DNA of 64,000 nucleotides, from assembly GCA_965205335.1 (NCBI GenBank), contig OZ242164.1, forward strand, positions 864,001 through 928,000, in the 5' to 3' direction. The stretch's first letter is position 1. The number at the start of each line of letters is the position of its first letter. This DNA comes from Candidatus Woesearchaeota archaeon. GTDB taxonomy: Archaea; Nanobdellota; Nanobdellia; Woesearchaeales; UBA583. The position numbers and the translations under genes were made by a program. The notes beneath the pieces were generated by a model. That model was not told the DNA's origin. It did no database searches and saw nothing but the letters and a program-made list of their open reading frames with translations. Below, piece after piece: positions 6,905 through 26,475 of this stretch.

Positions 6905-7405
6905 TTATAGTTTCTTATTTCTTGGCTGTTCTCTTATTGCTGGTTTCTTTGAGAATTTATTGTCTAATTTACCTGATAAAAATTCCTCAATAATCTTAGT
7001 TAAAATCCCAATAAACTCCTCTTTTCCCTTTTCATATTCTTCACGGGTTACAAATTCTATAGGATTCCATAAATCAATATATTTCTCAAGTTTTGCAACC
7101 TCATCTCTTGTTGTCATAATCTTTAATTGCTTTGAAACTCTCAAGTTAAACTCCTTAATTGAATTAATATTCTCTCTTAGACTTAATATATCTGCTCTTA
7201 AGGATTTAATATCCGATGCAATTTTTTTAAAATTTGATATAGAATTATGATCAAGCAGTTCAATCTTTTCATCTGCTAAATCAATCTTTGATTCTAAATC
7301 CTTTTGTCTCTGGGTTACTGATAACAGGGCTTTTGAGTGAGTATCAACTTTATCATAGAATGCTTCCTTATTCTTGTCATCACCGCCAAATATATTTGTA
7401 GGCAT
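6905..7405 (-). CDS. Hypothetical coiled-coil protein (resembles a conserved DPANN family)
   Basis: Heptad-rich sequence; KLEKYIDLWNPIEFVTREE motif. Confidence 0.6.
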   Translation of the reverse strand: MPTNIFGGDDKNKEAFYDKVDTHSKALLSVTQRQKDLESKIDLADEKIELLDHNSISNFKKIASDIKSLRADILSLRENINSIKEFNLRVSKQLKIMTTRDEVAKLEKYIDLWNPIEFVTREEYEKGKEEFIGILTKIIEEFLSGKLDNKFSKKPAIREQPRNKKL

Positions 7406-7539: not shown

Positions 7540-8421
7540 ATGGCTTTTTTAGCAGATAGTTTTGATAGATTTGGAATAGACATAGCAGGATTTTTAAGTG
7601 ATGAGTATTTTGTTATTGGTTTATTGTTTATTGCATTTCTTCTTGGAACTTTTGCTATGTTTAAGGGTCTTTTAAGATTTTCATTCAAAAATTCTGGTCA
7701 GTTTCAGAAAAAAGAAATAAATGTTATTGCATTAATGCTATCAATTATTAGTTCTGCTGGGATTTTCTTTATTTTCAGAGATAGCCCTTCTACAATGATT
7801 TATCTCTTTGGGGGATTTGGTGGTTTGTTTATTGTAATGTTTTTGATAATCTTTTTGATGCATACAATGTATACATTTGCAGAACATTTTAAGGATGAAG
7901 ATGGTCTTTTGGGCAAGGGAGTTGGATGGATTTTCATAATGTCTTTAGGAGTTGTTCTTAGTAGTTATCTGCTTCTTGGATATTCAAATCAAGTTATAAA
8001 AGGACTTACGAACAGTGGTTTATTTAGCTGGATTTCTAATATAGTTGGTGTTGTTACTGAACTTGCATTACTTGCTGCAATTATTTTTGGTTTTATATGG
8101 CTTTTTAAAGGCAATGGTTCGGAAAATAATGATAGTAATGCACATCCCTCATCTGATAATGATTCAGGAGAAGGAATTTTTGGTATTTCAAAGAAGAAAC
8201 AGAAGAATAGAAAGGATGCTGGGGAGATTAAAGGTGTTATGGGGGATATGGTAAAAGGGATTCAAAGGGCAGACAGTGCATTTCGTGAAAAACAGGAAAA
8301 GTTGCAGGAATTAAGTAGAATGGTTCAAGCGCAAGCAGATAACTCTCTTCCTCAACAAAACGAGCAACAAGAAGGAAGTTCTCAAGGAGGTGAAAATAAT
8401 GGAAGTAATCAAAGTGGTTAG
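7540..8421 (+). CDS. Multi-pass membrane protein with charged C-terminal tail (paralog of 11805..12596)
   Basis: About 5 TM segments; FKNSGQFQKKEINVIALMLSIISSAGIFFI aligns with FKSHQKEANVISIMISLISTTGMFFI. Confidence 0.75.
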   Translation: MAFLADSFDRFGIDIAGFLSDEYFVIGLLFIAFLLGTFAMFKGLLRFSFKNSGQFQKKEINVIALMLSIISSAGIFFIFRDSPSTMIYLFGGFGGLFIVMFLIIFLMHTMYTFAEHFKDEDGLLGKGVGWIFIMSLGVVLSSYLLLGYSNQVIKGLTNSGLFSWISNIVGVVTELALLAAIIFGFIWLFKGNGSENNDSNAHPSSDNDSGEGIFGISKKKQKNRKDAGEIKGVMGDMVKGIQRADSAFREKQEKLQELSRMVQAQADNSLPQQNEQQEGSSQGGENNGSNQSG

Positions 8422-8448
8422 TTGTGAATTAGGAGGTGATTTTTGAAA

Positions 8449-9777
8449 ATGTCAAGACGAAGAAGAGATAATGTAAAACTTATTATTGTTCAGAGAATAA
8501 TCCAACTTAATGATACTCTTATAACTGAAGTTACAAGATGGATTAGACAGATTAATGATATAGATGAAATTTTAAAAAAAGATGAGAATTTGGAAATTGA
8601 AGAGAAGGATATGAGTATGAGTTTTGGAAGAAGGAATTTTTCCAAGAAATACAAAGATTTATTTAAATCAATTCAAATGTATGATAACGATTTAAAAAAG
8701 AGACTTAACAAACTAGAGGAATCATTAGAACGTGAAAATAAAGTACTTGCAAAAGTTTTATCAGAAGTTAGTGTTAGAGAAGTTACAATATCTGCAAGTC
8801 TTTTTACAAGCATTGTAGAACATAACAAAGAACAGGTTAGAATTTACACAGATTTGCATAGAAATTATTGGAATTCATTCTTTGGCAATATTCAACAAGT
8901 AGTTGGAGCTTTTGAAGAGGAGGTTTCAGAAGATTCACGTTTGTTTGTAGAGAAGTTTAGCCATTTGTGTGATGTACTTAGAAATGAACATAGAGAAGGA
9001 AAACCTAATGTTGAGGACTTGTTTCTTCATCTCATAGAATGTGTCGACATATTAAACAGATATATACCAGATAATAATTCAAAAGAAGTATTCATACAAG
9101 GTATTGAAGAGAAATCACATGCAAAAAAATTTGCAGATAATTATTTCAATAGTAGAAATGTTCGAAATCAAATCTTTTCAAATAAAAACAAAATTCATAA
9201 ATTGATTTTAAAGGCGAGAGATGGATTTAAGGCCGAAGGGATTGATAAAGATGGTAGAAAGAAAATTAAGAAATTTACAAATGATGTACTTAAAATCCTA
9301 TTTAGAGGGATTGAGGAATTTAAGGATAGGATTGATGATTTGGGAGGAAGTGATAGTAGTTCAAGTGAAGGGACAGGAAGTCTTACCCGAGAAGAGAAAC
9401 AGAAAATAAAAGAGGCATGGAATCAGATATATAGTCGGATACCTAGTGGAACATTTAATACAAGTGGTATTGTACCAGAAGATAAAGTTACCTTAAAATC
9501 TCATTTGATGAATCTAATGGACACATTATTTGGAGGAGAGGAGAAAATTAAGGAGAATAATGGAAGTTATAAGTGTGCACAGTTTTCAAAAGTATGTAAA
9601 GAAATTAGCTCATCAATAGAAGGTAGGGCTAAGCAAAGTAATGTATGGAATGATTTACTTGATTATGCAAAAAAGAATTATCTCAGTATCACCGATTGTA
9701 ATGATCAAAATGTCAATGAATTTCTCCAACGTTTACATTATGTAATATTAGATTTACAGAATCTTGAGAGGTTCTAA
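8449..9777 (+). CDS. Hypothetical alpha-helical/coiled-coil protein
   Basis: Long ORF; GGAGGTGA SD at 8432-8439; start TTG 8443 or ATG 8449. Confidence 0.7.
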   Translation: MSRRRRDNVKLIIVQRIIQLNDTLITEVTRWIRQINDIDEILKKDENLEIEEKDMSMSFGRRNFSKKYKDLFKSIQMYDNDLKKRLNKLEESLERENKVLAKVLSEVSVREVTISASLFTSIVEHNKEQVRIYTDLHRNYWNSFFGNIQQVVGAFEEEVSEDSRLFVEKFSHLCDVLRNEHREGKPNVEDLFLHLIECVDILNRYIPDNNSKEVFIQGIEEKSHAKKFADNYFNSRNVRNQIFSNKNKIHKLILKARDGFKAEGIDKDGRKKIKKFTNDVLKILFRGIEEFKDRIDDLGGSDSSSSEGTGSLTREEKQKIKEAWNQIYSRIPSGTFNTSGIVPEDKVTLKSHLMNLMDTLFGGEEKIKENNGSYKCAQFSKVCKEISSSIEGRAKQSNVWNDLLDYAKKNYLSITDCNDQNVNEFLQRLHYVILDLQNLERF

Positions 9778-11740
9778 AAATAGTAAGATGATCTTTTCAT
9801 TTAAGCATAAAAATCTGTATTCTGATGTAGGGAATGGGCAATGTGTGTTTATTCCATTTAATTTTAATTATATAAAAATAGAATCTTTGTATATTAAAAA
9901 TGAAGCAGGAAATCAGTTCAGTTACAGAATATATTTAGATTTGAATTGCCCATTCACACTTACTCAAAAAGGAGTGTATAGATTTAGAATTCAAAAACTA
10001 AGAACTTCAGGAAATGTAGTTTATCATTATTATTTGCTTAAAGAATGTGTTCAATTGCTAAAAGAAATATTAGAACCAATTCTTCTTGAAATTATTAAAG
10101 GTTCTGGAGATAGACACGCTGACAAACTAACAACACTTGATGAAATAAAAAGAATAAATTCTAAGAAAGAAGATAAAGGAAATGATAAGATTAGATATAC
10201 TGTTTTACACGTTGAAATAGATTCTGTACCTCAAGGGGAGGAACGAAACCCATTTTATTTTATTCAAAGCCCTGACGAAGAATTATTAACACAACTTTCG
10301 GATTTTTCTGAAATGGCAAATGTTATTTATAGCCGTAAAACAATAATGGAAGGCAATGAGGCAAAGAATAAGGTTAAAGAAATATTTAATAAATATGATA
10401 TACCTGAAGATCTTCAAATGCAATTAAGATCTGCATTCAAGATTGATGCTTTTATAGATAGGGATATGAAGAAAATTCAAGTTGGGTGCGGTGGTATTCT
10501 ATATGGTCCTTTTGGAACAGGAAAGACTTTTATTATTCAAAACCCAATTAGAGAAATTTTTGAAGGAGTTTTAGGTTTTGGATATGAAGAGGTTAATCTG
10601 GTTGAAAATGTAGGTACAGACGATAGTATGTATTGGGGAGCAGCAATGAGAACAGTAAATAGGGTCTTCATGCCTATATTTAAGAAAATTCAAACAGAGC
10701 AAAAGCCTTATTTCTACTTTGTTGATGAAGGAGATAAATTTGCCAAGACTCCATCGCATGCAGATGATGATGAAGGGGCAGCGGGTATTAAGAATCTATT
10801 AAATCCTAAGGCGTATCCGGGATTAATATTATGTTTGAACACAAATCTTAAGTCTTCTGAGTTAAATATGGCTTTAATTGGTAGAAGATTAGAAGGTGTT
10901 GAGATTGGGTATCCTAATGAGGAAACTTGTTTTAAAATGTGGAAGATATATAAAAGACTCGTTTTTGGTGAAGATAATGAAGGGAATATTACAGATGAAC
11001 AATACAGAGAATTAGCAAAAATTGTTGCTGGTAGAATTGGTATTGATGCTATTGAAAGTTTTTGTTCACATTATAGAACGCTTACACAATCCGAGATAAA
11101 TGAGGATGTGGATTTTATTGAGTTTAAAAATAAATTTTTTAGGTATGTCTTAAAAAGAGTAAATGATAGAATGGAAAATGACATAAATAAGATAACTTCC
11201 AATCCTGCCACTAATCGTATGAGTGATAGTGAAATTGAGAGTATTAGAAGAGATGCACAGGAGCAAATAAGGAGTATAACAGCAGCATTTTCTGGAAAGG
11301 ATTCAACAGCTATAAATTCTGAATTAATAGAAAAACTTGCTGAGAGTGGAGAGAAGAATCTCTATTTTAAAAATTACAAAATGTTTCGTAAATTACTTTG
11401 TGAGGGTGGAGTGAAGGATGCTATTTTTAAGTACTATAATAATAAATCAGAAATAGATGATGAAGATATAAGCAAGTTAGAAGAATGTTTCGGAAATATA
11501 GATTTTATTATAAGATTTTATGAATATGCACCTTCTGATGTTAAAAATAAATTATTGCCTCTTATTAATAGCATAAATACACTTAGAAATTACATGATTC
11601 ATATTCTATTAGATTTGAATTCTAACAGATTTCGAACAGAGTTTCCACATCTTATAACTGAGAGTGGAAAAAATTTAAGTAGTGAACAAATTGTGGGAAT
11701 TACTACATACCTTATGAGGGAATTGCCAAGTCTTGAATAA
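9764..11740 (+). CDS. AAA ATPase, classic clade (divergent CDC48/Vps4/FtsH-like module) with unknown N- and C-terminal domains
   Basis: Walker A GPFGTGKT, pore-loop-like SMYWG, Walker B FYFVDEGD, sensor-1 LNTN, Arg finger ALIGRRL; start may be ATG 9788. Confidence 0.8.
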   Translation: MRGSKNSKMIFSFKHKNLYSDVGNGQCVFIPFNFNYIKIESLYIKNEAGNQFSYRIYLDLNCPFTLTQKGVYRFRIQKLRTSGNVVYHYYLLKECVQLLKEILEPILLEIIKGSGDRHADKLTTLDEIKRINSKKEDKGNDKIRYTVLHVEIDSVPQGEERNPFYFIQSPDEELLTQLSDFSEMANVIYSRKTIMEGNEAKNKVKEIFNKYDIPEDLQMQLRSAFKIDAFIDRDMKKIQVGCGGILYGPFGTGKTFIIQNPIREIFEGVLGFGYEEVNLVENVGTDDSMYWGAAMRTVNRVFMPIFKKIQTEQKPYFYFVDEGDKFAKTPSHADDDEGAAGIKNLLNPKAYPGLILCLNTNLKSSELNMALIGRRLEGVEIGYPNEETCFKMWKIYKRLVFGEDNEGNITDEQYRELAKIVAGRIGIDAIESFCSHYRTLTQSEINEDVDFIEFKNKFFRYVLKRVNDRMENDINKITSNPATNRMSDSEIESIRRDAQEQIRSITAAFSGKDSTAINSELIEKLAESGEKNLYFKNYKMFRKLLCEGGVKDAIFKYYNNKSEIDDEDISKLEECFGNIDFIIRFYEYAPSDVKNKLLPLINSINTLRNYMIHILLDLNSNRFRTEFPHLITESGKNLSSEQIVGITTYLMRELPSLE

Positions 11741-11804
11741 TTTTATTGATTAATCCTAAGAAGTGAAAGCAAATTTTTATAAGTCATTAAGATAAGGAAA
11801 GGAT

Positions 11805-12596
11805 ATGTTTAGAAAATATTATTTAGCTCTTTTTGGTTTTCTCTTAGCAATAGAGAATTCTTTCGCTAATACCATTACAGAAACTCTCGTGGACACCATT
11901 AGCAGTATTCTTGGTGAAAGGGGCTTGTCAAGTTTAATAACTAATAAATATGTTGTTTTTGCTCTAATATTTATAGGAGTTTTAGTAGGAACTTATAGTA
12001 TTCTTAAAATTCCTCTGTCTATGGCATTTAAAAGCCATCAAAAAGAAGCCAATGTAATTTCAATAATGATATCATTAATATCAACTACTGGGATGTTTTT
12101 TATTCTTACTAACGGAGAACCTTCTCGAGTAGAAGCCGCAATTGCTATTTTTGGAGGAACAATTGGTCTTATAGTTCTATCCATATTTGGAATTTTACTT
12201 TTGGTTTTAGTTGATTATATACTCGTAAATACACTTGAGAGAGAAAGACTATCTCGCTGGTGGGTTGCTGGAATGATTGGTACAGGACTTTTAGTAACTT
12301 CCGTGTTATTAGTAGTTATAGACAAAACAGTAGAATTATATACTGAAACTTCCATGACTCAGTGGTTAAGTGGGTTACTTTTATCATTAGAAAATATATT
12401 TACTATTATCTTAATTTTAACGTTCATCTATATTATTTTCCGAAGTAGGAGAAAAAGCAAAGAAGGGCAAGAATTATTAAAAAGCAATCCTAATATTAGA
12501 AAAGCACAAAATATTATTAAAAAGATTAATAAGAACAATAAAAAAATGAAAGAAATACTAAGGGATATTAAACATAAAGTTGGAGGAGGTTCATAA
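11805..12596 (+). CDS. Multi-pass membrane protein (paralog of 7540..8421) with signal peptide and basic C-terminal helix
   Basis: Signal peptide ..ENSFA, about 5 TMs, shared KE(A/I)NVI motif. Confidence 0.75.
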   Translation: MFRKYYLALFGFLLAIENSFANTITETLVDTISSILGERGLSSLITNKYVVFALIFIGVLVGTYSILKIPLSMAFKSHQKEANVISIMISLISTTGMFFILTNGEPSRVEAAIAIFGGTIGLIVLSIFGILLLVLVDYILVNTLERERLSRWWVAGMIGTGLLVTSVLLVVIDKTVELYTETSMTQWLSGLLLSLENIFTIILILTFIYIIFRSRRKSKEGQELLKSNPNIRKAQNIIKKINKNNKKMKEILRDIKHKVGGGS

Positions 12597-12597
12597 A

Positions 12598-13641
12598 ATG
12601 GCAGGAAATTTAATAGCGGATTTAATCGAAGATTTTAAAAGTTTAGGGACATTGGCTGAAGTAACTCAAGATGATTTAAAAACTCTTGAAGGTTTATCTG
12701 TAAATCCTGATGAGTTAGATGAAGGTCCACTGGCAAGTATAATTTCACCATTTAAAAAAATGTATCGTAATAATCACTTAAAACTAACAAGTGATGTAAA
12801 TGGAGCTATTGAACACCTTAAAGGAGTTAGTAAGTATAGTGATGAAATAGTAAAATGGCTTGGAGACTTTAGAGTTATAAGAGAACATTCTGAATTAATG
12901 AAGTTATTTAATAATCCTAATCAAGAAGGTGCTACGTTCTCAAGTCAAATTGAAGGATTGTCTCGAAATTTTGATTTATATGTCCAAAAGGTAGGTATGT
13001 CTTTAGAAAAAGAAGAAAATTTAATAGGTGAATCTGCTGAAATAGAACATATGTCTACTTATCGTGATAAAATAGTTAAGAAATTAGAAGAAATTAAAAG
13101 TATTCAAGGGGAGAATAATTATAAAGACATTAAGGAAATGTTTATAGAGTATGCTACAGGAGAGATAGGTAGGAGAATTAGAGATAGTACATCTATAAGT
13201 AAAGTAGTAAGAGAAGTTCTTCCTCAAATTAATCAGTTAATACTTCTGGCAGAAGATGAAATTTTTAAGAAACTTAATGGAAATTTTGATAGTTATAGGA
13301 GGGGAATTATTAGAGGTTTCTTTGTAATATTTTTTGGAGATTTAGAAAAGTTTAAAGAAGAAAATTCTAATGAATATCTAGAAAATTGCCTTAAAGAAAT
13401 TAATGGTCTAGAAACATTGAAATATGGGAATTTTGAAGTAAATATTAAAGACCCAAGTAGAATTGAATATAAAGGTAAGCCCAATGAAATCTTCAAACTT
13501 TCTTCTACCACGTTATTGCATTCAGTTCTTATAAGTCCAGATGGTCTTTCTTTAAGGTTTAAAGATACAAATGATGGAAAAGAAGTGACTAAAAAGATTT
13601 CTACATTAAACCTAAGGACACCTCCTCCCCAAAAGATGTGA
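12598..13641 (+). CDS. Hypothetical alpha-helical protein
   Basis: ATG 12598 after GGAGGAGG SD, directly after the upstream stop. Confidence 0.7.
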   Translation: MAGNLIADLIEDFKSLGTLAEVTQDDLKTLEGLSVNPDELDEGPLASIISPFKKMYRNNHLKLTSDVNGAIEHLKGVSKYSDEIVKWLGDFRVIREHSELMKLFNNPNQEGATFSSQIEGLSRNFDLYVQKVGMSLEKEENLIGESAEIEHMSTYRDKIVKKLEEIKSIQGENNYKDIKEMFIEYATGEIGRRIRDSTSISKVVREVLPQINQLILLAEDEIFKKLNGNFDSYRRGIIRGFFVIFFGDLEKFKEENSNEYLENCLKEINGLETLKYGNFEVNIKDPSRIEYKGKPNEIFKLSSTTLLHSVLISPDGLSLRFKDTNDGKEVTKKISTLNLRTPPPQKM

Positions 13642-13784
13642 CATCTCAAAGAGAGCAGTAAGTTTGGGATGTTGAAGTTTCAACGTCTATTTCTGTTAAG
13701 GTTAATAATAATGAAAATAAAAATGATTACTAATGAGTAGTTAAAAAGGAAAGATTTATAAATAAAAGTCTCTTACTCCTTTAC

Positions 13785-14507
13785 ATGGAAAGTTCAGGTA
13801 TTAAAAGAAAAGCTAGCGAGTCAGGCACTCCTAATGGTAGTGATAGAGAAAATAGGTTAACAGAAATCATAGGTTATGTAACCATTGGTAATTTAAATTC
13901 ATATCGGAAGAAACATCCTAAAATAGCAACAGGAGTATTGGCTCTAGCATTAGCAGGTGGTATATTAGGAATTAAATATTGTGGTAATAATGAAGCAGTT
14001 AATGTTCCTCCTACTGTTCAAGAGATCTATACTGAAAGATCAAAGGAGAAAAAACCTGATGAAGTAACAATTTTAGAGGATACATCTAAAGGATCTGATG
14101 TTCCAGCTACTCCACAAACACCTAGTGTTCCAAGTAAAAGTGTTGAGAGGCAACCATATAGTAAAGGACCAGAGAAAGAACCAACAAAGGTCCTCTTACA
14201 AAAAAAAAGCCATTTAGAAGAAATGTGTCCTAACTATAATCCATCTGAAGAGGACAGAGATGATATACTTAGATGTATAAATAAGGAAGCACGTTATTTA
14301 GTTCACGGTAAGCGTGAAGACCAACAATATTTAACAAGTATATCTGGAGTAGTTAATCTTTTAGAAGATGAAAGAATAAGAGGAATTAAGAAAAGAGCAA
14401 TTCTTAGTCCTTATGCTCAAAGATGTGGAATTTCAGAAGATGAAATAAGAAGTTCGAATATAGAAGATTTAGAAGAAAAGGTAAATAGTTGTTATACCTC
14501 AAAATAA
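13785..14507 (+). CDS. Orphan membrane-anchored protein with Pro/Thr/Ser linker and Cys-containing extracellular domain
   Basis: TM IATGVLALALAGGILGI; TATA-like TTTATAAA at about 13755. Confidence 0.6.
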   Translation: MESSGIKRKASESGTPNGSDRENRLTEIIGYVTIGNLNSYRKKHPKIATGVLALALAGGILGIKYCGNNEAVNVPPTVQEIYTERSKEKKPDEVTILEDTSKGSDVPATPQTPSVPSKSVERQPYSKGPEKEPTKVLLQKKSHLEEMCPNYNPSEEDRDDILRCINKEARYLVHGKREDQQYLTSISGVVNLLEDERIRGIKKRAILSPYAQRCGISEDEIRSSNIEDLEEKVNSCYTSK

Positions 14508-14871
14508 AATAATTAATTCTATAATTCTTTAGATAATGTAATTCTTATAGTGGAATCTTTTAATAAGTATTACCATAATTTTACAGTGCAAGATAACTAA
14601 ATTTATAAGAAAATATCTTATAAATTTTATCCTTCTCAGAAATAAGTAAATCAATAAATAAAGAGACAGTGTTTTTGAAAAAACAAAACTATGGATATAT
14701 TTTTACATATAAAATTGATTATGTACATACAATTAGGATAGAGTCTCTCTTTAATAAAATTATGTCAGAAAAGGCACTTAATTGTTTGCTTAAATTTATC
14801 CTTACTTGGAAGTAACAAATACAAAAGCTTTATAAATAATAAGATATTATTACTATTTAACAGTAAAGAAA

Positions 14872-16296
14872 ATGAAAATGAAAACAAATTTAGAGGGTTT
14901 GTGTATACGAGGACTTGCATCCTCATTTAAAAAAAGTATAACGACTGCCGCATTAGCGGCAATGATGGCATCGGGTCCACAAGTTTCCGCACAACAAGCG
15001 GCAATGATGGCATCGGGTCCACAAGTTTCCGCACAACAATATAATCTCGCAGAAAGAACAGATTGTGTTAGTGAAAATGTGGAAGTAGTTTCTCTTGATG
15101 ATAAACAAGGATATTCAGTTGCAAAAACATATTGTCCTAGTAAAGGTAAACCAGTTGGACAATTTAGTGATAGACTTCGAGAGTCTTTGGGTTTGGAACA
15201 GGATGAAAGTAAAGTAATAGAGGCATATTATCTTGATGATTCAGGAAAGCCTGCACTTTCTCCTATTGGTGTGTATTGTACTTTGAATGATTCTCATATG
15301 ACTGACTTAACTCATTTAGGAAGAGATCATCCTTCAGGTGTCCCACTTGGAGTTAGAGTTAGAGAATCTACAGAAGAAGATGGATGTGCTGTTGAATCAG
15401 AGGTTCATTATGCGATTGAAAATGATTTCAATGAAAAATTTGAGGATTTAACTGGTAGAATTAGAAAATTAGAAGAGATTGGTAGTAGTCGCCCACAATC
15501 AGAAAAATCATCGGAAGCACCAGTAGAACCACCTGAGGTACAAGCAGTTCCTGCAGAACCAGTAGAACCACCAACGGAAGTTGTACAAATTCCTCATTTC
15601 GTAGTACCATTAAGAGGTAACAGCACTAAGAATTTACCAGTTGTAGTTTACGAAGATAATTTAGTTAAATCAGTTATAGGATTAGATCCAAGGAATGGAT
15701 ATTCTCCAGAATATGGTAATGCAAGTTATGACTCATTCCAGCTTTCTAATGAAGAAATTGCGAAAGAGTTATTAAGACAAGCAAATTTGGAAAAATTAAT
15801 ACATTCTGTTTCCTCAAAGATAGGTGCTATGGCTGTTAAAGAACATTATGGAGGTGCCCCTGAATTAGGAAGAGATATAATTTTACATGAAACTTTAGGT
15901 GATCTTGGTCTCTCTAAAAAAGAGTTACTTAATGGTGGGTTCAATTACGGAGCAGATTCGGCTGCAGCAGACTTAGTAGTAGAAAGAGCTAAGGAGGGAG
16001 GAATATATACAATGCAAGATCTTGCTGGACTTACAGACAAAAATCTTCTTTCAAAGTTTCTGGATCTTGGATATAAATTTATAACGGTTAAACGTATTGT
16101 CCCCGGCAGTTCTTTTAATCATGTGCGTACTAAAGGAACAAGAAGAGCATTAAACAAAGAGATTAAACGTGCTAAGAAGGATGTTTTTAAAACATGTGGA
16201 TCTTTAGGCTCCCAGAATGGGAGGATAGCATGTGCTTTTGATAGAGGATATCGTGTAATAGGAGAAATTGTTGGGAACAGAGGTAATAGAAAATGA
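14872..16296 (+). CDS. Orphan secreted protein with duplicated signal-peptide end and PVEPP linker
   Basis: KKSITTAALAAMMASGPQVSA signal peptide; Cys pairs; overlaps the next gene (ATGA-type coupling). Confidence 0.65.
   Translation: MKMKTNLEGLCIRGLASSFKKSITTAALAAMMASGPQVSAQQAAMMASGPQVSAQQYNLAERTDCVSENVEVVSLDDKQGYSVAKTYCPSKGKPVGQFSDRLRESLGLEQDESKVIEAYYLDDSGKPALSPIGVYCTLNDSHMTDLTHLGRDHPSGVPLGVRVRESTEEDGCAVESEVHYAIENDFNEKFEDLTGRIRKLEEIGSSRPQSEKSSEAPVEPPEVQAVPAEPVEPPTEVVQIPHFVVPLRGNSTKNLPVVVYEDNLVKSVIGLDPRNGYSPEYGNASYDSFQLSNEEIAKELLRQANLEKLIHSVSSKIGAMAVKEHYGGAPELGRDIILHETLGDLGLSKKELLNGGFNYGADSAAADLVVERAKEGGIYTMQDLAGLTDKNLLSKFLDLGYKFITVKRIVPGSSFNHVRTKGTRRALNKEIKRAKKDVFKTCGSLGSQNGRIACAFDRGYRVIGEIVGNRGNRK
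14956..15039 (+). repeat. Perfect 42-bp tandem duplication (AAMMASGPQVSAQQ x2)
   Basis: gcggcaatgatggcatcgggtccacaagtttccgcacaacaa at 14956 and 14998. Confidence 0.95.
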
Positions 16297-16871
16297 ATAA
16301 AAAATTAATTAAAATAGTAGGTGCTGCAGCGTTATTATATGGCGCATCTACATTAGAGGCAGGACCACTTCATACTGGTTATGTTGCTAATTTGGAGAAA
16401 AAATATGTAAAAAGAATGTGTAAAGATAACAAAGGATTAAGGGCTAAATATAGAAATAATCTAGAACAGTGTGTACAAGATGTTAATGGAAGTTTCAATC
16501 AAAAAGCTCAGGTAGTTAAGAGGTTAATGGATTTCAATGTTGCAACAGGATATCTTGGTGATAGTCTGCCTCGTCTACCTCAATATTCTATGGTAAGTGC
16601 TTCTGAAGAAGACAAACTTAGAATAGCAGCAAAAGTAGCAATAGATGTGACTCCAGAAACATTGTCATACTTTAATGCCACAATGCTAGAAGTCAAAGGA
16701 CACAATAAAATTAAGGGAGACCTTAATGAAGCAATAAGAGATGATATAATTGCAACGGGAGTACTTACTGCTGTGGGTTCGTTTTTCTTAGGAAATGGTG
16801 TAGCGAAAGCAGTTGAAGGAGTTAGTCATAAATCCCCTAAGATTATGATAAGAGCACCGGGTGTAAATTAA
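16293..16871 (+). CDS. Orphan secreted protein with C-terminal hydrophobic Gly-rich helix
   Basis: MNKKLIKIVGAAALLYGASTLEA signal peptide; IIATGVLTAVGSFFLGNGVA. Confidence 0.6.
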   Translation: MNKKLIKIVGAAALLYGASTLEAGPLHTGYVANLEKKYVKRMCKDNKGLRAKYRNNLEQCVQDVNGSFNQKAQVVKRLMDFNVATGYLGDSLPRLPQYSMVSASEEDKLRIAAKVAIDVTPETLSYFNATMLEVKGHNKIKGDLNEAIRDDIIATGVLTAVGSFFLGNGVAKAVEGVSHKSPKIMIRAPGVN

Positions 16872-16895
16872 AAGTTAGAAAGAGGAAAAAATAAA

Positions 16896-19800
16896 ATGAA
16901 AAAACAATTACTACTGATGCTGTTTGCAATCTTATTATCTTTAGGATTTGCATTTGCTTCAGAGACACAAGGTGAACAATATCATGTTTTCCAGATGAAC
17001 TTTGCAGATGAAGTTCCAAATTCAGTATTTGTAACAGGTGGAGAATGTGCCAATACTCTGTGTAGTACATTTAAACCATCATCACAAGTTGAAGTGTACA
17101 ATGGCGCACAAGCATTTGAATGTGACAGATTATATTCAAATAATGTGAATGACTTCAAATCATGTATGGCGAGAGCTAAACTGAGTTCAAACATTCATCC
17201 AATACAAAATAATGGAGATTATGTTGCAGTTAAAGTTAATATACCTAACAATTATGCATTTGGACACTTACTATGGTTCTCAACAGAAGGAGACACATAC
17301 ATACCTTGGTATGCTCAGGTAACATATGACTGTTCAGGTGGAGAAGTATGTTTTTATCCAGCGGCAAGTAGCAAGGGAAATGCAACAGACATTAACTTTG
17401 ACAAATTTCAAAGAATTGCAATTGCTGAAGTAAGTCAAGTTAACATAAAAAACCTTGACGATGACACAAAACCAATTCAAATAGAGGTTCCAGTTCAAAT
17501 AGAAGAAACTGTTTGTTCAGCTTATAGAGCAGCTAATGGTAACTATGAAGTTCCAAACTTCCCCCAAGGATACTCTGATCTTAGTGCTAACACAAACATT
17601 AAACTAACTATTAAAAACAATCATAACAGCGAAGTGCTATTAACAGAAGATGTTAACTTACCTATTGAAGCAGACACATGTGCAGCGCTTCATGCATTTA
17701 CATGGACTCCTCCAGAAGATTTACTTGACACAGAAATTAAATTTAGAGTGGAAACAGATGTTGTTGACAAACAAGTAAGTGAGTCCAAAAAAGACTTCCA
17801 CGAAGTAATTGAAACAATCTACCCAGAAGACCTTACCGGACAATGTTGGAGTAGAGCTTACGATTTAGTATTAACAAATGATCCATATGAAGAATTATCA
17901 ACAAGTATAGTTGAAATAACTAAAGGAGAGAAAGTATATGCAATATTTAATGCAGGAACATGGAAAGGTAATGAAATAACTCCTCTTGAAACATCTTGGC
18001 AAATTAAATTTAACAGTACAGTAGTTAAAGAGGGAGAATTTCAGACTCAAACAAATGATGTGCAGAAAATTACAGTTGATCTAACAGAGGCTATCTCAGT
18101 TGTTGATGCAGGAAATTATAGAGTTCAATTAATAACAAGAGCATCAAGTACTCAGAATTGTGATGTGAGTGTACCTGTAGTTCAGAATGTGAACTTAGAC
18201 GTTCGTGAAATTGATATGTTTGAAGTTGAATTTGAAGTAATGGAAGAAGGAGACCAATACAACAAAATAGATGGAGCAAACATTAGCTTAGTATTAACCG
18301 AGTCTCACGAGTACTTTGCAAGCAAACCAGAATATGACAAAAGTCAAACAACTGACACGCAAGGAAAAACTACATTTAACGAAGCTACAAGAGGAGAATA
18401 CACGTACACAATAACAAAAAGTGGATTCCAGAGAGTTACAAACAATGTAATTGTTGGTTCAGACACAACGGTAACAATCTCTCTACCAAAAAATAACAAT
18501 GCACCTACAATTGATTTACCTCACAACAGAACAGTAGATATTAAGAGCACATTAGAACTAGATTTAGAAGATTATGTACATGACTTTGAAGATGCATTTA
18601 GTGATTTAAATCTTAGCGTAAGAAAAGCATCAGGAAACGCGCAAGTGCAAATAGAGAACTCAAAATTAATAGTAAAAAAGAATTCAGTTGGAAATGTTGA
18701 CCTTGAAGTAACAGTAACTGACAGTCAAGGGGCATCAGCTAGTGATTCAATGTTAGTTAGTTTCATTGATAACAATGCTCCTGTAATTAATTCATTTGTT
18801 GCAAATCCTACTAACGGAGATGCTCCATTTACAACTACATTTGAAATAGATGTTCATGATGCTGATGGAGATACTCTAAGATGTACTATAAACTATGATG
18901 ATAGAAGTACAAATAAAGAAGGTAACTGTGATGAAATTGATGGAATAACTCACACATACAACACAGTTGGAACATACAATGTAGTTTTAACAGTAAGTGA
19001 TGGCAAAAATGATCCTGTTAAACAAACTGAGCAGGTATTTGTATTTGAAAGAAACTACTCATCACCTCATATTGGGTTTTTCACATTAGAATCAAGCAAT
19101 GGTGATTATATACCAACTGATTTAACATTAGTTTGGGAAGTAACTCACCCTGACAACCTTGATACAAAATGTTTCCTTAGAATTAATGGAGTTTCAGAGA
19201 GCGTTAATTGTAAAGATACAAAGAATATAAACAACTTTGACAGATTAGGAGAATCCAGATTCATATTGCTTGCAGATGATGGGGAACACCAAGTATCAAG
19301 AAAACACATTAAAGTATTTTATAGAGAAGAAGATGAGGAAAACACACCACCAGTAATTGATGAATTCACAGTTAATACAACAAAAAGCACATTAGGTATG
19401 ATTGCACAATTTACCACAGCAGTATCAGATGCTGATGGAGATAGTTTAAGATGCTCTATTAACTTTGGAGATGGAGTTACAATACAAGACTCAGAATGTG
19501 ATCCATTAAGAAGTGTAGAACATCAATATAATGGAGTAGAAGACTTCACTGCAATATTTAGTGTAACAGATGGAGTAGACACAACATCAGAATCTATTAC
19601 AGTTGCATTAGAAGAAGATAAAGTAGAAGTGAATAACACACCTCCAGTAATTGAAGAATTCACAGCAGATCCAACAGAAGGCTCGGTAGGAGTGGAAGTA
19701 ACATTTACTACAAGAGTATCAGATGTTGATGAAGATAGTTTAAAATGTTCTATTGACTTTGGAGATAGCGTTACAGAAGATGATACATACTGTACATTTT

Positions 19801-21446
19801 TAGAAACAATAAAACATCAATACAACAGTTTAGGAACATACACCGCAACATTTAATGTAACAGATGGAACAGACACAGCATCAGAATCTATTACAATCAC
19901 AGTAACTGATGAGGAAAACTCACGTCCAGTAATTGAAGAATTCACAGCAGATCCAACAGAAGGCTCAGTAGGAGTGGAAGTAACATTTACTACAAGAGTA
20001 TCAGATGTTGATGAAGATAGTTTAAAATGCTCTATTGACTTTGGAGATGGAGTTGCAGAAGATGACACATATTGTGTCTTCTTAGAAACAGTAGAACATC
20101 AATATAACACTGTGGGAACATTCACTGTAAGATTTAGTGTAACAGATGGGACAAACACAGTCTCAGAATCTATTGCAATCAATGTAAGAGAAAACAACGC
20201 ACCTGTTATAAACCGATTTGAAGCAAGCCCTAGCGGAGGACGTTCACCTCTTATTGCTTCATTTTATGTGGACGTAACTGATTCAGATGGAGATAGTGTA
20301 TCATGTAGAATTGATTTTGGAGATGGAACATTATCACATCAGGATGATTGTTACTTATTAAATGGAGTGACTCACCAATACATAGGAATTGGTAAATATA
20401 CTGCAAAATTAGTTGCAGAAGATGAGTTTGGTAAGGAAATTTATGCAACAGAAACAATTAGAGTAATATCTCAAGAACCTTTAGTTGAGTTCTTTACTCT
20501 AAGCACATCAACAGGAAGTTATATCCTTCCAAATGACATAACACTGCAATGGAAAGCAACTCACCCTGATGAAGTGCCAGTTACATGTGACTTAATAGTT
20601 AACGGTGCTAAAACATCTAATGTTGGATGTCAGAACTCAAAAACACTCTCAAACTACAATGTTGAAGGAACTGCAAAATTCGAGATAGTTGTAAGAGATG
20701 GATATGGAAACTCAGATAGCAAGAGCATTGAACAATTATTTGCGAAAGTTCCGTTAACTCATGAAAATTTAGACTTGGAAATTGACTCTGTAATTGAACC
20801 GGGAGATTTCAGATTCTACTTAGAAGTTAGTGACGAGAGTATTGCAAGAAGACAATTGTACTTAGAACCACAAATCAGATGTAATGGAGTTACAAGCCCG
20901 CTATCTAACAGCAGAAAATTAGAAACTTCCGCTAAATCAAGTGTATACATTGGTTCAGTTACAAGATTTGAATTTATAACAAATACACTTGATTACCGTT
21001 CAAATATTCCAAAAGAAACTCAGTGTGTATTCTCTGTAAGAGTTACAGACAAATATGGAACAGACCTTGAGTTAAATGAGGATGTAAGATTTGAATACGG
21101 AGTGGGTCAGACTCAAATCCAATCAATTAGAGGAAGTGGAACTGACATTGCAAATTACATGCAAACAGCTCTTAGTGGCAATATTGAACCAGGATTTAAT
21201 TCAGTAGAGTTCAATTTGATAAATAATGAAGTAGAGGACAAAAGAATTACAGTCTCACTATTGAGCAGAGAACTTGGAATCAATTATGTATTGGATAGAA
21301 GATTAGAACCAGATACATTACTGAGAGTTCAAATTCCAATATACATTTCAGATAATGTAGAATCAGGAATGTATCCTGTTAGAATTAGTTTCACTGATGA
21401 AAACGAAGGAAGACAAACAAGATACACTTACATAAACATTGAATAA
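16896..21446 (+). CDS. Large surface protein with PKD/Ig-like repeats and a carboxypeptidase-regulatory-like domain
   Basis: Signal peptide ..GFAFA; repeated IDFGDG..HQYN..GTYTA.F.VTDG PKD motifs; 1516 aa. Confidence 0.85.
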   Translation: MKKQLLLMLFAILLSLGFAFASETQGEQYHVFQMNFADEVPNSVFVTGGECANTLCSTFKPSSQVEVYNGAQAFECDRLYSNNVNDFKSCMARAKLSSNIHPIQNNGDYVAVKVNIPNNYAFGHLLWFSTEGDTYIPWYAQVTYDCSGGEVCFYPAASSKGNATDINFDKFQRIAIAEVSQVNIKNLDDDTKPIQIEVPVQIEETVCSAYRAANGNYEVPNFPQGYSDLSANTNIKLTIKNNHNSEVLLTEDVNLPIEADTCAALHAFTWTPPEDLLDTEIKFRVETDVVDKQVSESKKDFHEVIETIYPEDLTGQCWSRAYDLVLTNDPYEELSTSIVEITKGEKVYAIFNAGTWKGNEITPLETSWQIKFNSTVVKEGEFQTQTNDVQKITVDLTEAISVVDAGNYRVQLITRASSTQNCDVSVPVVQNVNLDVREIDMFEVEFEVMEEGDQYNKIDGANISLVLTESHEYFASKPEYDKSQTTDTQGKTTFNEATRGEYTYTITKSGFQRVTNNVIVGSDTTVTISLPKNNNAPTIDLPHNRTVDIKSTLELDLEDYVHDFEDAFSDLNLSVRKASGNAQVQIENSKLIVKKNSVGNVDLEVTVTDSQGASASDSMLVSFIDNNAPVINSFVANPTNGDAPFTTTFEIDVHDADGDTLRCTINYDDRSTNKEGNCDEIDGITHTYNTVGTYNVVLTVSDGKNDPVKQTEQVFVFERNYSSPHIGFFTLESSNGDYIPTDLTLVWEVTHPDNLDTKCFLRINGVSESVNCKDTKNINNFDRLGESRFILLADDGEHQVSRKHIKVFYREEDEENTPPVIDEFTVNTTKSTLGMIAQFTTAVSDADGDSLRCSINFGDGVTIQDSECDPLRSVEHQYNGVEDFTAIFSVTDGVDTTSESITVALEEDKVEVNNTPPVIEEFTADPTEGSVGVEVTFTTRVSDVDEDSLKCSIDFGDSVTEDDTYCTFLETIKHQYNSLGTYTATFNVTDGTDTASESITITVTDEENSRPVIEEFTADPTEGSVGVEVTFTTRVSDVDEDSLKCSIDFGDGVAEDDTYCVFLETVEHQYNTVGTFTVRFSVTDGTNTVSESIAINVRENNAPVINRFEASPSGGRSPLIASFYVDVTDSDGDSVSCRIDFGDGTLSHQDDCYLLNGVTHQYIGIGKYTAKLVAEDEFGKEIYATETIRVISQEPLVEFFTLSTSTGSYILPNDITLQWKATHPDEVPVTCDLIVNGAKTSNVGCQNSKTLSNYNVEGTAKFEIVVRDGYGNSDSKSIEQLFAKVPLTHENLDLEIDSVIEPGDFRFYLEVSDESIARRQLYLEPQIRCNGVTSPLSNSRKLETSAKSSVYIGSVTRFEFITNTLDYRSNIPKETQCVFSVRVTDKYGTDLELNEDVRFEYGVGQTQIQSIRGSGTDIANYMQTALSGNIEPGFNSVEFNLINNEVEDKRITVSLLSRELGINYVLDRRLEPDTLLRVQIPIYISDNVESGMYPVRISFTDENEGRQTRYTYINIE
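19350..20180 (+). repeat. Three tandem PKD-domain DNA repeats (units start 19350, 19644, 19926)
   Basis: ccagtaattga(t/a)gaattcacag at each unit; units 2 and 3 nearly identical over most of their length. Confidence 0.85.
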
Positions 21447-24159: not shown

Positions 24160-26475
24160 TTGAAAGTGACAAATCAAGACAATTCTAGAGAAGAAGGACA
24201 AGAGAATTTAGAAGAGAAAATAGGGCTCTTTGGTAAATTCAGAGGACGAGGGAAGAAGAAAAAAGCAATAGTTGATGTGAGTTTTATGTCTTTACCAGGT
24301 CATAAAATTAATCTCAATGAAGGAGGAGGTGTTGATATTAATTCTGAAGAAGGTAAGGGTGTATCTTTGAAAATTCACAAAGAGAGGGGAAAGACTAGTA
24401 TTAATCCTACAGATGATCCGAACATTGCACATGTAAATTCTGATAGAGAGACTATTTTTGAGTCTTCTTTCCCTGGCATGGATGTTTTTGTTGGTAAAGG
24501 AGGGAATCGTTTTAAACCTATTGATGATAGAAATATTTCTTTTAACCTATTAGACAGGATGTTTTTGAATTTTGGTGGTAATATGAAAAATTATTTTCTT
24601 GCTAGACCTACATCCAGAAAAGGTATAAATTATATCATTAATGGTGTGATTGGGGTGGTTGAAGCTATCATTCCAAGAGGTGGAGGATTGCTTACTAAGT
24701 ATGGTGAGAAGGATACTAAATTAGTTCCTGTCTCCGAGTCAGGTACATCTGTTGAAGTAGGTAAGGAAGTTAAGGTGGTTGTTCCAAAAGATAGAGGATT
24801 GCTTACTAAGTATAGTGAGAAGGATACTAAATTAGTTCCTGTCTCCGAGCCAGGTACATCTGTTGAAGTAGGTAGGAAAGTTAAGGTGGTTACTCCAAAA
24901 AGAAAAAATTTATCTGCGAAATTTGGAGGAGATGGTACTGATACAATAAGTCCCACAGATAATTCTGTTCCAGTTGTTAATGCAGGTAGAGAATTTGAAG
25001 CTAGAACTTTAGAGGAGGAGATATTATCAGTGGAACTTGGCAGGAATTGGGCTATATTTAGACCTAAAGGCAAAGGGGATGATAACCCATCTGTAACTTT
25101 GCATGATAAGATAGAAGTTACGCCTCTGAAAAGTAGAGGTATAATTTGGAATGTGATAAAGAAAGGAAGATCAGCGGTGGTGACCGCTGAACCTATAAAA
25201 AAGGGAGGAAAATTTCTTAGAATGCCCAATGGAATACTTAATCTTAATAATTTTAAATATAAGTTGAGTGATGGGGGAATATTTGATTTTAATAAAGAAA
25301 AATGGAAGAAAAGATGGGTTAAAGGACTTTCTTTGATGGTATTAGGTAGCGCATTAGCAGGCGGAGTATTAAAATATCAATACCTAATGAATAATAATGA
25401 AGGGAGTTCTCCACAACAACCTCGTTCCAAGCGATTTGATAGTATACCAGAATTAGTAGAGGCAAATGGTATTTATATTTATCATAAGGGTGCTTTTGAT
25501 AGATGGACAGATGTCTGGTATGATATTAATACATCGCAAGGATTGTGTGAAAAAGATACTTATGTAACAGATAGAGTAAAAAGCAGACATCTTCTAGTAA
25601 GACTTGATGGGCGTGTCCCAAGGATTGTAAATACAAATGGGAACAATCAGAAAGAGAAAAAAAACCGAGGAAGAATGGTAGTTTCTCGTGAGATTCTAAT
25701 GAATTATGATTTGAGAATAGGTCATGGAGGAGATTTTGTTCTCCCTATAAGAAAAGGTGAACAAGGATATCCTTTTGCATTATATTGTAATGGAAGTAAA
25801 ATGGGAAAAGCAGTTGAGAGGTATCTTTCAGGAACGATACCACCTAATCAATGGTGGAAGGGGGCAGGATTGAAGAACAAGGAACTTAAATATGGTTCAG
25901 CATTTGAAGGAATTTTTAAAGATTTTAAAGATAATGAGGGAAATCCTACACTGCCCCAAGAACTTACACACTTACTTAAAGCACAAGCACTTGTTGAGAG
26001 TAGATTTATACCAGAGTCTATATCTCCTTCTGGTGCGAGGGGAATTCTGCAATTATTAAGAGGTACTCTTAGTCATTATGGTGTCAAGAGAGAGAATGAT
26101 TTTAAAATCCCTTATCAAATCAGATGTGCTTATGCACACTATGAAGATAAAATTAAGGAATTCAAACGATCATTGGGAGATATAAGAGCATCTGATGAAG
26201 ACAAAGCAAAACTTGCACTTTATTTAGCGATGCAGGCATATCATAGTGGGGAAGGTAATGTAAGTGGGATATTAAAAAAACCAGAATCAAAAGGAATCTT
26301 AGAAAAACTATTATCTGAAAACAGAAGTCCTCAAGAAGTAGTGCATGGATTGATAATATCAAATTATGGATTTGGAAAAATTTCTAATCGCAAAATAGGA
26401 GAAGAGTCCATAAATTACTTACCAAAGATCTTTGCCGCAGAAAGATTTCTATCAGAGAATGAATTGAGAAAGTAG
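24160..26475 (+). CDS. Membrane-anchored lytic transglycosylase (SLT family) with long N-terminal extension
   Basis: Catalytic ALVES, SGARGILQL, QAYHSGEGN, NYLPKI; TM GLSLMVLGSALAGGVL near aa 390. Confidence 0.85.
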   Translation: MKVTNQDNSREEGQENLEEKIGLFGKFRGRGKKKKAIVDVSFMSLPGHKINLNEGGGVDINSEEGKGVSLKIHKERGKTSINPTDDPNIAHVNSDRETIFESSFPGMDVFVGKGGNRFKPIDDRNISFNLLDRMFLNFGGNMKNYFLARPTSRKGINYIINGVIGVVEAIIPRGGGLLTKYGEKDTKLVPVSESGTSVEVGKEVKVVVPKDRGLLTKYSEKDTKLVPVSEPGTSVEVGRKVKVVTPKRKNLSAKFGGDGTDTISPTDNSVPVVNAGREFEARTLEEEILSVELGRNWAIFRPKGKGDDNPSVTLHDKIEVTPLKSRGIIWNVIKKGRSAVVTAEPIKKGGKFLRMPNGILNLNNFKYKLSDGGIFDFNKEKWKKRWVKGLSLMVLGSALAGGVLKYQYLMNNNEGSSPQQPRSKRFDSIPELVEANGIYIYHKGAFDRWTDVWYDINTSQGLCEKDTYVTDRVKSRHLLVRLDGRVPRIVNTNGNNQKEKKNRGRMVVSREILMNYDLRIGHGGDFVLPIRKGEQGYPFALYCNGSKMGKAVERYLSGTIPPNQWWKGAGLKNKELKYGSAFEGIFKDFKDNEGNPTLPQELTHLLKAQALVESRFIPESISPSGARGILQLLRGTLSHYGVKRENDFKIPYQIRCAYAHYEDKIKEFKRSLGDIRASDEDKAKLALYLAMQAYHSGEGNVSGILKKPESKGILEKLLSENRSPQEVVHGLIISNYGFGKISNRKIGEESINYLPKIFAAERFLSENELRK
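24671..24892 (+). repeat. 111-bp imperfect tandem duplication (37 aa) in the SLT N-terminal extension
   Basis: GLLTKY(G/S)EKDTKLVPVSE(S/P)GTSVEVG x2. Confidence 0.9.

Follow-up and report, generated by a model that had tools for sequence, protein, structure and literature searches.

What is the work of an AAA ATPase whose gene stands between two pairs of genes, each pair encoding a membrane protein and a soluble helical protein of no known family? The question is raised by a five-gene operon in a 64,000-nucleotide (nt) stretch from a Candidatus Woesearchaeota archaeon (assembly GCA_965205335.1, contig OZ242164.1, positions 864,001 to 928,000 of the forward strand), hereafter the window. Genes 1 and 4 encode polytopic transmembrane (TM) proteins, genes 2 and 5 their soluble partners, and gene 3 the ATPase. 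We give a probability of about 0.5 to the reading that the operon is an accessory, fast-evolving and lineage-specific membrane-side AAA+ module of one genus of Woesearchaeota-type DPANN archaea, in which a hexamer of the ATPase works at the cytoplasmic face of the membrane on the tails of the TM proteins and on their helical partners.

Gene order and its conservation were observed directly. We compared 15 loci that were informative, drawn from 13 genomes of the genus, and scored every open reading frame (ORF) in them with family profiles; for the related loci, TM counts came from a crude hydropathy scan and each ORF was taken to begin at its first start codon. Of the 15 loci, 12 had a TM protein, a soluble partner and an AAA in that order, and five, the window included, had a second TM and soluble pair. 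Gene 2 always lay directly 3' of a TM gene. Across 13 loci the junction between TM gene and partner ranged from -26 to +27 nt and that between partner and AAA from 2 to 13 nt. Two further metagenome contigs ended inside the TM gene and were uninformative. Because the order was kept in 12 of 15 loci despite protein identities of 16–48%, the arrangement is, on this comparison, far more than chance would give, and the five genes are best described as a real, conserved operon.

The operon evolved much faster than housekeeping genes. Compared with five other genomes of the genus, the window's genome showed identities of 71–78% for GyrA and 52–66% for HisRS, against 27–48% for gene 1, ~24–26% for gene 2, 23–34% for the AAA and 24–31% for gene 4. 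Gene 5, the fastest-evolving member, was not detected by tblastn in those five genomes. With the single AAA sequence as query, 7 of the 19 other genomes of the genus yielded relatives, and 21 genomes, one for each of 21 further families of the order, yielded none; the TM family, searched by profile, was present in 11 of the 19. The conservation across DPANN that the earlier note on this DNA, made from its letters alone, had raised was therefore not borne out: AAA and gene 2 partners were found in one genus only (12/20 genomes) and not in the 21 other families. HisRS lay ~9–12 kb beyond the module in four genomes, and this kept position indicates that the locus was inherited in place. We rejected a mobile or viral origin on the same ground and because no integrase adjoined the module in the loci examined.

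In the window the five genes are co-oriented and closely spaced at the place given in the earlier note (Table 1), and the two strong Shine-Dalgarno sites that it mentioned precede in-frame ATGs of genes 2 and 5. The likely real starts of genes 2, 3 and 5, read from the sequence, are the ATGs at 8449, 9788 and 12598, the second of which lies 10 nt past the stop of gene 2. The successive intergenic gaps from gene 1 to gene 5 then come to 27, 10, 64 and 1 nt. An A+T-rich spacer of 143 nt separates gene 5 from the next gene.

Table 1 Features of the operon in the window (positions in window coordinates; aa, amino acids).
Feature	Position	Strand	Raw ORF	Description
Gene 1	7540..8421	+	7540-8421	Polytopic membrane protein, 293 aa; five modelled TM helices and a predicted cytoplasmic tail
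Shine-Dalgarno site AGGAGGTGA	8431..8439	+		9 nt before ATG 8449 (gene 2); read from sequence
Gene 2	8449..9777	+	8443-9777	Soluble all-helical partner, 442 aa; ORF opens at TTG 8443
Gene 3	9788..11740	+	9764-11740	Single-domain classic-clade AAA+ ATPase, 650 aa; ORF opens at TTG 9764
Gene 4	11805..12596	+	11805-12596	Gene 1 paralog, 263 aa; signal peptide, TM helices, short basic amphipathic tail
Shine-Dalgarno site GGAGGAGGT	12582..12590	+		7 nt before ATG 12598 (gene 5); read from sequence
Gene 5	12598..13641	+	12580-13641	Soluble partner of gene 4, 347 aa; ORF opens at TTG 12580
Hairpin then T-rich run	13667..13688	+		Possible transcription-unit end; consensus match only, 3 found vs 2.6 expected

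AAA ATPase. Gene 3 matched PF00004 with 33.9 bits (cut-off 21.2 bits, E 5.1e-8); its AAA core stands between a private N-domain of ~230 aa and a helical C-terminal extension of ~200 aa. The Gly-x-Gly-Lys of Walker A, the Asp-Glu of Walker B, the sensor-1 Asn (N353) and the Arg finger (R367) were invariant in all 28 family rows. The pore loop reads S-M-Y-W-G in the window; its Gly was kept in 26 of 28 rows, and the aromatic position was occupied by Tyr in 18, Phe in one and His in one. The classic-clade motifs and aromatic pore loop that the earlier note had pointed out all stood, with the correction that the conserved aromatic is the Tyr of S-M-Y-W-G and not the Trp, which the note had set against that of Vps4. 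Gene 3 had no Peptidase_M41 match and no TM segment in its sequence, no MIT match at E up to 1, no CDC48_N and a single PF00004 stretch.

Among solved structures the AAA profile matched AFG2 (E 7.9e-22), an archaeal VCP-like protein (1.4e-19), Cdc48/p97 (~1e-16), NSF (4.5e-15) and Vps4 (1.4e-14). CdvC was the most recurrent NCBIfam match of the family (five of six members, best E 2.6e-15), although the window's gene 3 reached 15.7 bits against a cut-off of 650. NCBIfam models of FtsH matched three of the six members through the AAA domain only, and the model of the anti-phage ATPase IteA also matched three, likewise through nothing more than the generic AAA domain (best E 1.2e-6). The N-domain profile found nothing below E 0.09 in the PDB. 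The ESM Atlas returned a TRIP13_N cluster for this domain, but its score of 0.82 equals the tool's own noise level and Pfam lent it no support.

Against 1.84 billion representatives the AAA profile gave 55 matches at E ≤1e-30. Among the 150 matches listed, 21 spanned the region from profile position ≤29 through the core, ~10 more did so partially, and the rest matched the generic AAA domain only. None of the 38 nearest single-domain representatives reached E 1e-40 in NCBIfam, a threshold that was too strict, and the 12 of these scanned with Pfam carried PF00004 only, two of them with AAA_16 as well. The genome's own AAA proteins include two Cdc48 with CDC48_N and a PAN-like protein, which scored 146–318 bits on PF00004 compared with 34 for gene 3. 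We built a tree of 54 AAA domains, made up of the 28 family rows, eight domains from six proteins of the same genome and 18 single-domain representatives picked from the 150; its named references were the genome's own paralogs only. In this tree 23 of the 28 family rows formed one clade (support 96/98) apart from a clade of Cdc48 D1/D2 and PAN (95/97), while five long-branch rows fell on unsupported forks and the backbone was unresolved. Because 23 of 28 rows form a separate supported clade, the family is, by this tree, not a copy of the genome's housekeeping AAAs. Profile and tree comparisons together place gene 3 in a private, divergent classic-clade family outside any named subfamily.

Membrane proteins. 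Genes 1 and 4 are paralogs, as had been read from their sequences (BLASTP, 33% identity over 125 aa, E 7e-15). The structure model of gene 1, built from a 26-row alignment, had a mean predicted local distance difference test (pLDDT) score of 64, with 10-residue block means of 74–92 across residues 21–110. It consists of a short N-terminal helix, five TM helices, a disordered linker and a long C-terminal helix at residues 219–268, in agreement with the earlier description of a multi-TM protein with a long C-terminal helix. Tails of the gene 1 type share a common plan of an acidic or Ser-rich linker, a short and conserved G-[IFL]-[FL]-G-x-hydrophobic-F-G-G motif, a Lys patch and an amphipathic helix. 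The window's gene 1 has an acidic linker, the Lys patch and the amphipathic helix, and its Gly/Phe motif is reduced to GIFG. The tail was amphipathic by hydrophobic moment, the observed value being reached by ≤5% of shuffles in 17 of 26 rows. Conservation within the family was highest in TM2 and lowest in the tail helix.

In half of the TM-family rows (13/26) the N-terminus is a signal peptide with a lipobox-like L-[ST/A]-G-C, and in 16/26 a variable loop of the form Cys-x(10-14)-Cys connects TM4 and TM5. Neither the lipobox-type signal nor the Cys loop is present in the window's gene 1 or its three closest relatives, and proteins of the gene 4 type have ordinary signal peptides. A Lys/Arg-rich loop follows TM1. 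Since the signal peptide or lipobox, the TM4–TM5 Cys loop and this basic loop all point the same way, the predicted topology is N-terminus out, five TM helices and C-terminal tail in the cytoplasm, and a tail so placed would be on the same side as the AAA. Several AAA N-domains find their clients through short linear motifs in cytoplasmic tails, which makes the tail motif a lead only.

The membrane domain has a wider distribution than the module. Among 5.8 billion proteins the TM profile found 18 clusters, none with a Pfam domain or an informative name, in a search that scored only the 8000 candidates sharing the most words. One TM-family protein (P0009) was named under Urechidicola and probably comes from a mislabelled bin. 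At E ≤1e-3 the profile matched 39 of 201 genomes of the order, a tally that includes one unpublished genome (G150). In ten loci from other families of the order (L027–L036), most TM-family proteins matched one another with E ~1e-13 to 1e-31; they ranged from 180 to 2355 aa, with up to three paralogs per locus and two with fn3 domains. No AAA or gene 2 relative stood beside the TM-family genes in these ten loci, whose neighbours were orphans of up to 1038 aa. By these profile matches, genes 1 and 4 share their N-terminal membrane domain with a wider Woesearchaeales family, and the pairing of this domain with an AAA and gene 2 is found, in the genomes searched, only within the genus.

Fold and profile searches with the TM family and the gene 1 model gave no match above noise. 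The TM-family profile found nothing below E 0.016 among PDB sequences, and MotB chains matched its tail region only at E 0.016–0.022. Foldseek returned no PDB match to the gene 1 model at E ≤0.001, and the wide VIA-align search gave generic helical arrangements (best Z 9.6), below the tool's stated noise for helical bundles (~13). A MotA/ExbB/ZorA-type stator fold was not among the top 50 matches of either fold search with this model of moderate confidence. A rhomboid or Derlin fold was not listed either, which for such a model is no proof of absence.

Soluble partners. The gene 2 model (pLDDT 62.6, predicted template modelling score 0.43) is all-helical with three long N-terminal helices. Its residues 1–158 form a long antiparallel helical bundle whose best wide VIA-align match was a designed helical bundle (Z 12.4), followed by BAR and F-BAR domains (Z 9.2–10.3), again under the stated noise. 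Foldseek gave no match at E ≤0.001 in the PDB and none in the viral library, ESM Atlas gave no usable match, and the gene 2 family profile found nothing below E 0.0076 among PDB sequences. The profile had three clusters in the large protein database. ESCRT-III, PspA, WXG100, dynamin and MotA folds were absent from the listed matches of the fold searches with the gene 1 and gene 2 models, both of moderate confidence, and neither gene 2 nor gene 5 matched Snf7 or PspA at E up to 1. The resemblance between genes 2 and 5 that had been seen by eye was not supported (BLASTP E 1.0; hhalign probability 0.1% and 0.25%), and the AAA profile was unrelated to either of them by hhalign.

Gene 5 had three relatives at 59–61% identity (the search found four proteins, one being gene 5 itself). 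Its profile aligned with the same-position genes of other genomes with an hhalign probability of 78% (E 1.8e-5, 151 columns). From these alignments gene 5 is a real gene and probably orthologous to its positional equivalents. Genes 1, 2, 4 and 5 all gave nothing significant in Pfam, NCBIfam, PADLOC or PHROGs. No named system with this layout emerged from the four databases, as the earlier note had anticipated. A full-text literature search returned no description of the module in its matched passages.

How might these parts work together? An intact threading ATPase is encoded directly after a membrane protein with a conserved tail and its helical partner, which makes recruitment of the AAA to the membrane the simplest reading. 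The core of the module would be the polytopic membrane protein, with its N-terminus outside, five TM helices and a cytoplasmic tail, followed by a tightly coupled soluble all-helical partner and then by a cytoplasmic AAA with its private N-domain. The window's sub-lineage adds a second pair, a paralogous membrane protein and its soluble partner, after the AAA. We suggest that the AAA assembles as a hexamer and that contacts with the membrane-protein tails, the helical partners or both bring it to the cytoplasmic face of the membrane. There, ATP-driven threading through the Tyr-x-Gly pore loops would disassemble, recycle or extract membrane-bound assemblies as its presumed substrates, in the manner of Vps4 on ESCRT-III, NSF on SNAREs or Cdc48 at Derlin.

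Several observations weigh against this reading. The pore-loop aromatic was replaced by Thr, Gln or another residue in eight of the 28 relatives, and one AAA (L042) has a deviant P-loop, DYGGTGKS, with Walker B kept. Profile and ESM Atlas searches recognised no adaptor-binding fold in the AAA N-domain. Two loci (L043, L044) contain a TM and soluble pair only, without an AAA, an occurrence that also fits the proposed module by marking the pair as its basic unit. In L040, one of the five loci with a second pair (9393-10727, minus strand; the same gene as L037:8174-9508, an identical locus from a metagenome), a 444-aa gene with only weak likeness to the N-domain and no P-loop occupies the AAA position and may represent loss of the ATPase domain, with an intact TM and soluble pair on either side. 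Membrane and soluble parts are thus not strictly dependent on the ATPase. The closed genome G007 of the genus had no AAA or TM-family match and nothing module-like in the 20 kb upstream of HisRS, and the module is for that reason accessory, without a core function. Both structure models, moreover, are of moderate confidence (pLDDT 64 for gene 1 and ~63 for gene 2), and neither had a fold match above stated noise.

The genes around the module gave further context. Directly downstream in the window, as the earlier note had it, is a run of orphan and surface genes (13785-21446): three orphan genes of 240, 474 and 192 aa at 13785-16871, with three N-terminal hydrophobic signals among them, followed by a PKD/Big_9 protein of 1516 aa that has a signal peptide. 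In G011 the region downstream of the module contains a relative of the PKD protein with 40% identity. In other genomes, genes of comparable length at the corresponding positions had no phmmer match. Further along the window, two adjacent proteins (24160-26475 and 26485-27747) have SLT lytic-transglycosylase domains, in an archaeon, and G011 has a third SLT protein downstream of its module. A YadA-head repeat protein is encoded upstream of the module in L010. After the module in three of the three-gene loci (L009, L041, L042) comes a TatD DNase instead of surface proteins.

Other neighbours varied as well. Just upstream of the operon in the window is a divergently oriented gene for a 166-aa coiled-coil protein (6905-7405, minus strand) that matched no family. 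It was far better conserved than the operon (54–61% identity in two genomes, 48% in G007) and was not adjacent to the module in those genomes. In three genomes (L011, L012 and L013) the module is immediately preceded by genes for glycogen synthase and amylo-alpha-1,6-glucosidase, where the window has GyrA. Downstream of the module in G001 (L013:10547-12262) are adjacent paralogs of 263 and 297 aa (E 1e-78), with a DDE transposase further on. Elsewhere in the window, ORFs of 510, 757 and 570 aa (958-2490, 48998-51271 and 51854-53566 (-)) had no Pfam family at E up to 1e-5.

The host genome is a single contig of 1.2 Mb with ~31% G+C and an estimated completeness of 95%. The window encodes TFIIB, aIF2-gamma, aRF1 and a Sec61-type SecY, whose closest relatives in the named genome collection were mostly metagenome-assembled genomes of Woesearchaeota and Nanoarchaeota, and these markers support the DPANN assumption made earlier from the letters. 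Several close relatives of SecY also occurred in records titled Methanosarcinales or Bdellovibrionales (L050, L055, L058, L068, L069), probably mislabelled bins.

This context hints at the cell surface or at host contact, because signal-peptide orphans, a PKD giant and SLT enzymes lie nearby, evolution is fast and the outer loops are variable; the TatD DNase after the three three-gene loci cuts against the hint. A more specific version, a host-contact machine, seems a long shot to us. In it, membrane proteins that are exposed at the surface, diversify fast and bear a lipid anchor and a variable disulfide loop would occupy the contact site; assemblies of their cytoplasmic helices with the soluble partners would shape or open the membrane, and the AAA would reset these assemblies. 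If true, an NSF/SNARE-like or Vps4/ESCRT-like cycle would have been invented independently in a DPANN lineage, beside an adhesin-like PKD protein and cell-wall lytic enzymes.

An undescribed antiviral or abortive-infection system, in which the AAA would serve as sensor or motor and the membrane proteins would be effectors that damage the membrane upon infection, is unlikely but deserves consideration. Layouts of an ATPase with TM effectors are common among defence systems. An accessory module of patchy spread (TM family in 11 of 19 other genomes and not in closed G007) that evolves at 23–48% identity where GyrA and HisRS keep 71–78% and 52–66% would suit such a role, as would the IteA matches, at their generic AAA level. 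Yet the models of PADLOC-DB 2.0 (2023) matched none of genes 1, 2, 3 and 5 at E up to 0.01, and gene 4 reached ZorB only with E 0.0098 and no stretch passing alone. The locus kept its position relative to HisRS in four genomes, and other than the one transposase in L013, no integrase or known defence gene adjoined it in the loci examined. Its neighbours are surface proteins rather than defence genes, and lipoprotein-type signals and disulfide-type outer loops fit resident surface-exposed proteins.

Membrane shaping in the manner of ESCRT or BAR proteins, in which genes 2 and 5 would polymerise or scaffold beside genes 1 and 4 and the AAA would serve as a Vps4-like recycler, is quite improbable. 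CdvC recurred most among the NCBIfam matches, the N-terminal bundle of gene 2 had BAR and F-BAR domains as structural neighbours, and the genome had no Snf7 (PF03357) match of its own. However, the Z values are under the tool's noise and headed by a designed bundle, the window's AAA falls far below the CdvC cut-off, and the searches at E up to 1 gave neither Snf7 or PspA for the partners nor MIT for gene 3. The Snf7 genome search was also insensitive, its control being positive in one of 14 genomes and never over the cut-off.

We consider it equally doubtful that the operon is a dedicated export or assembly machine for the downstream surface proteins (the orphans at 13785-16871 and the PKD protein), with the membrane proteins as conduit and the AAA as motor. 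The orphans with their hydrophobic signals follow directly, then the PKD giant; SLT-domain and PKD proteins are also downstream in G011, and the YadA-head protein is upstream in L010. Proteins with ordinary N-terminal signals are nevertheless expected to use Sec, and SecY is present at 61529-62905. The gene after the module in L009, L041 and L042 is TatD DNase, a hairpin and the 143-nt gap follow gene 5 in the window, and to our knowledge classic-clade AAAs are not usual motors of prokaryotic secretion systems. The view that unrelated genes, some of them perhaps spurious ORFs, merely lie side by side with no shared function is strongly disfavoured, for although four of the five proteins have no family match and the gene 5 equivalents are barely alignable, all five have relatives in sister genomes, the order holds in 12 of 15 loci at 16–48% identity, and the junctions of TM gene, partner and AAA are tight or overlapping.

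Almost no molecular parts are known by which DPANN archaea build and control contact with their hosts. The module is a defined candidate, with a recognisable AAA motor of intact catalytic residues and four partners that match no known family, two of them probably surface-exposed. If the module acts at the membrane as we propose, it would give the classic AAA clade a new set of adaptors and substrates and provide an experimental handle on the membrane biology of an uncultivated lineage. Its range of one genus and its accessory status limit its general importance unless a role in host contact or defence is shown.

Compared with known systems, the module shares some features with each and matches none in full. 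The ATPase and TM anti-phage systems of PADLOC-DB 2.0 likewise combine an ATPase with membrane proteins, patchy spread and fast evolution, and differ in that no model matched genes 1, 2, 3 and 5 and gene 4 came only as near ZorB as given above. FtsH has the TM anchor and M41 protease domain that gene 3 lacks. Vps4 and CdvC are, like gene 3, single-domain classic-clade AAAs with an aromatic-x-Gly pore loop, Vps4 chains were among the profile's structural matches, and they act, as the module presumably does, on helical proteins at a membrane. In contrast to the Vps4/CdvC and ESCRT-III systems, the module had no detected MIT domain and its genes 2 and 5 showed no similarity to Snf7 or PspA, its AAA scored far below the CdvC cut-off, and gene 3 adds the private N-domain and the C-terminal extension. 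The Cdv system, for its part, has no polytopic membrane partners.

Cdc48, VCP and AFG2 gave the best solved-structure matches to the AAA core, and in the Derlin/p97 case a polytopic membrane protein recruits the AAA through a short motif in its cytoplasmic tail. Gene 3, unlike Cdc48 and VCP, has one AAA domain instead of two and no CDC48_N, both of which features the genome's own two Cdc48 possess, and its family forms a clade separate from their D1 and D2 domains. The NSF/alpha-SNAP/SNARE system resembles the module in uniting an AAA of the classic clade with a soluble all-helical protein and with membrane proteins whose cytoplasmic helices are amphipathic or coiled-coil; NSF was among the structural matches. 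There was no SNARE, SNAP or NSF_N similarity, the hits to syntaxin (E 0.85) and to a 20S-complex chain (Foldseek probability 0.2) being noise, and the module's membrane proteins are polytopic with C-terminal helices where SNAREs are tail-anchored. A new principle is not yet shown. The AAA unfoldase is of an already known kind, and what is new is the set of membrane and helical partners that surrounds it.

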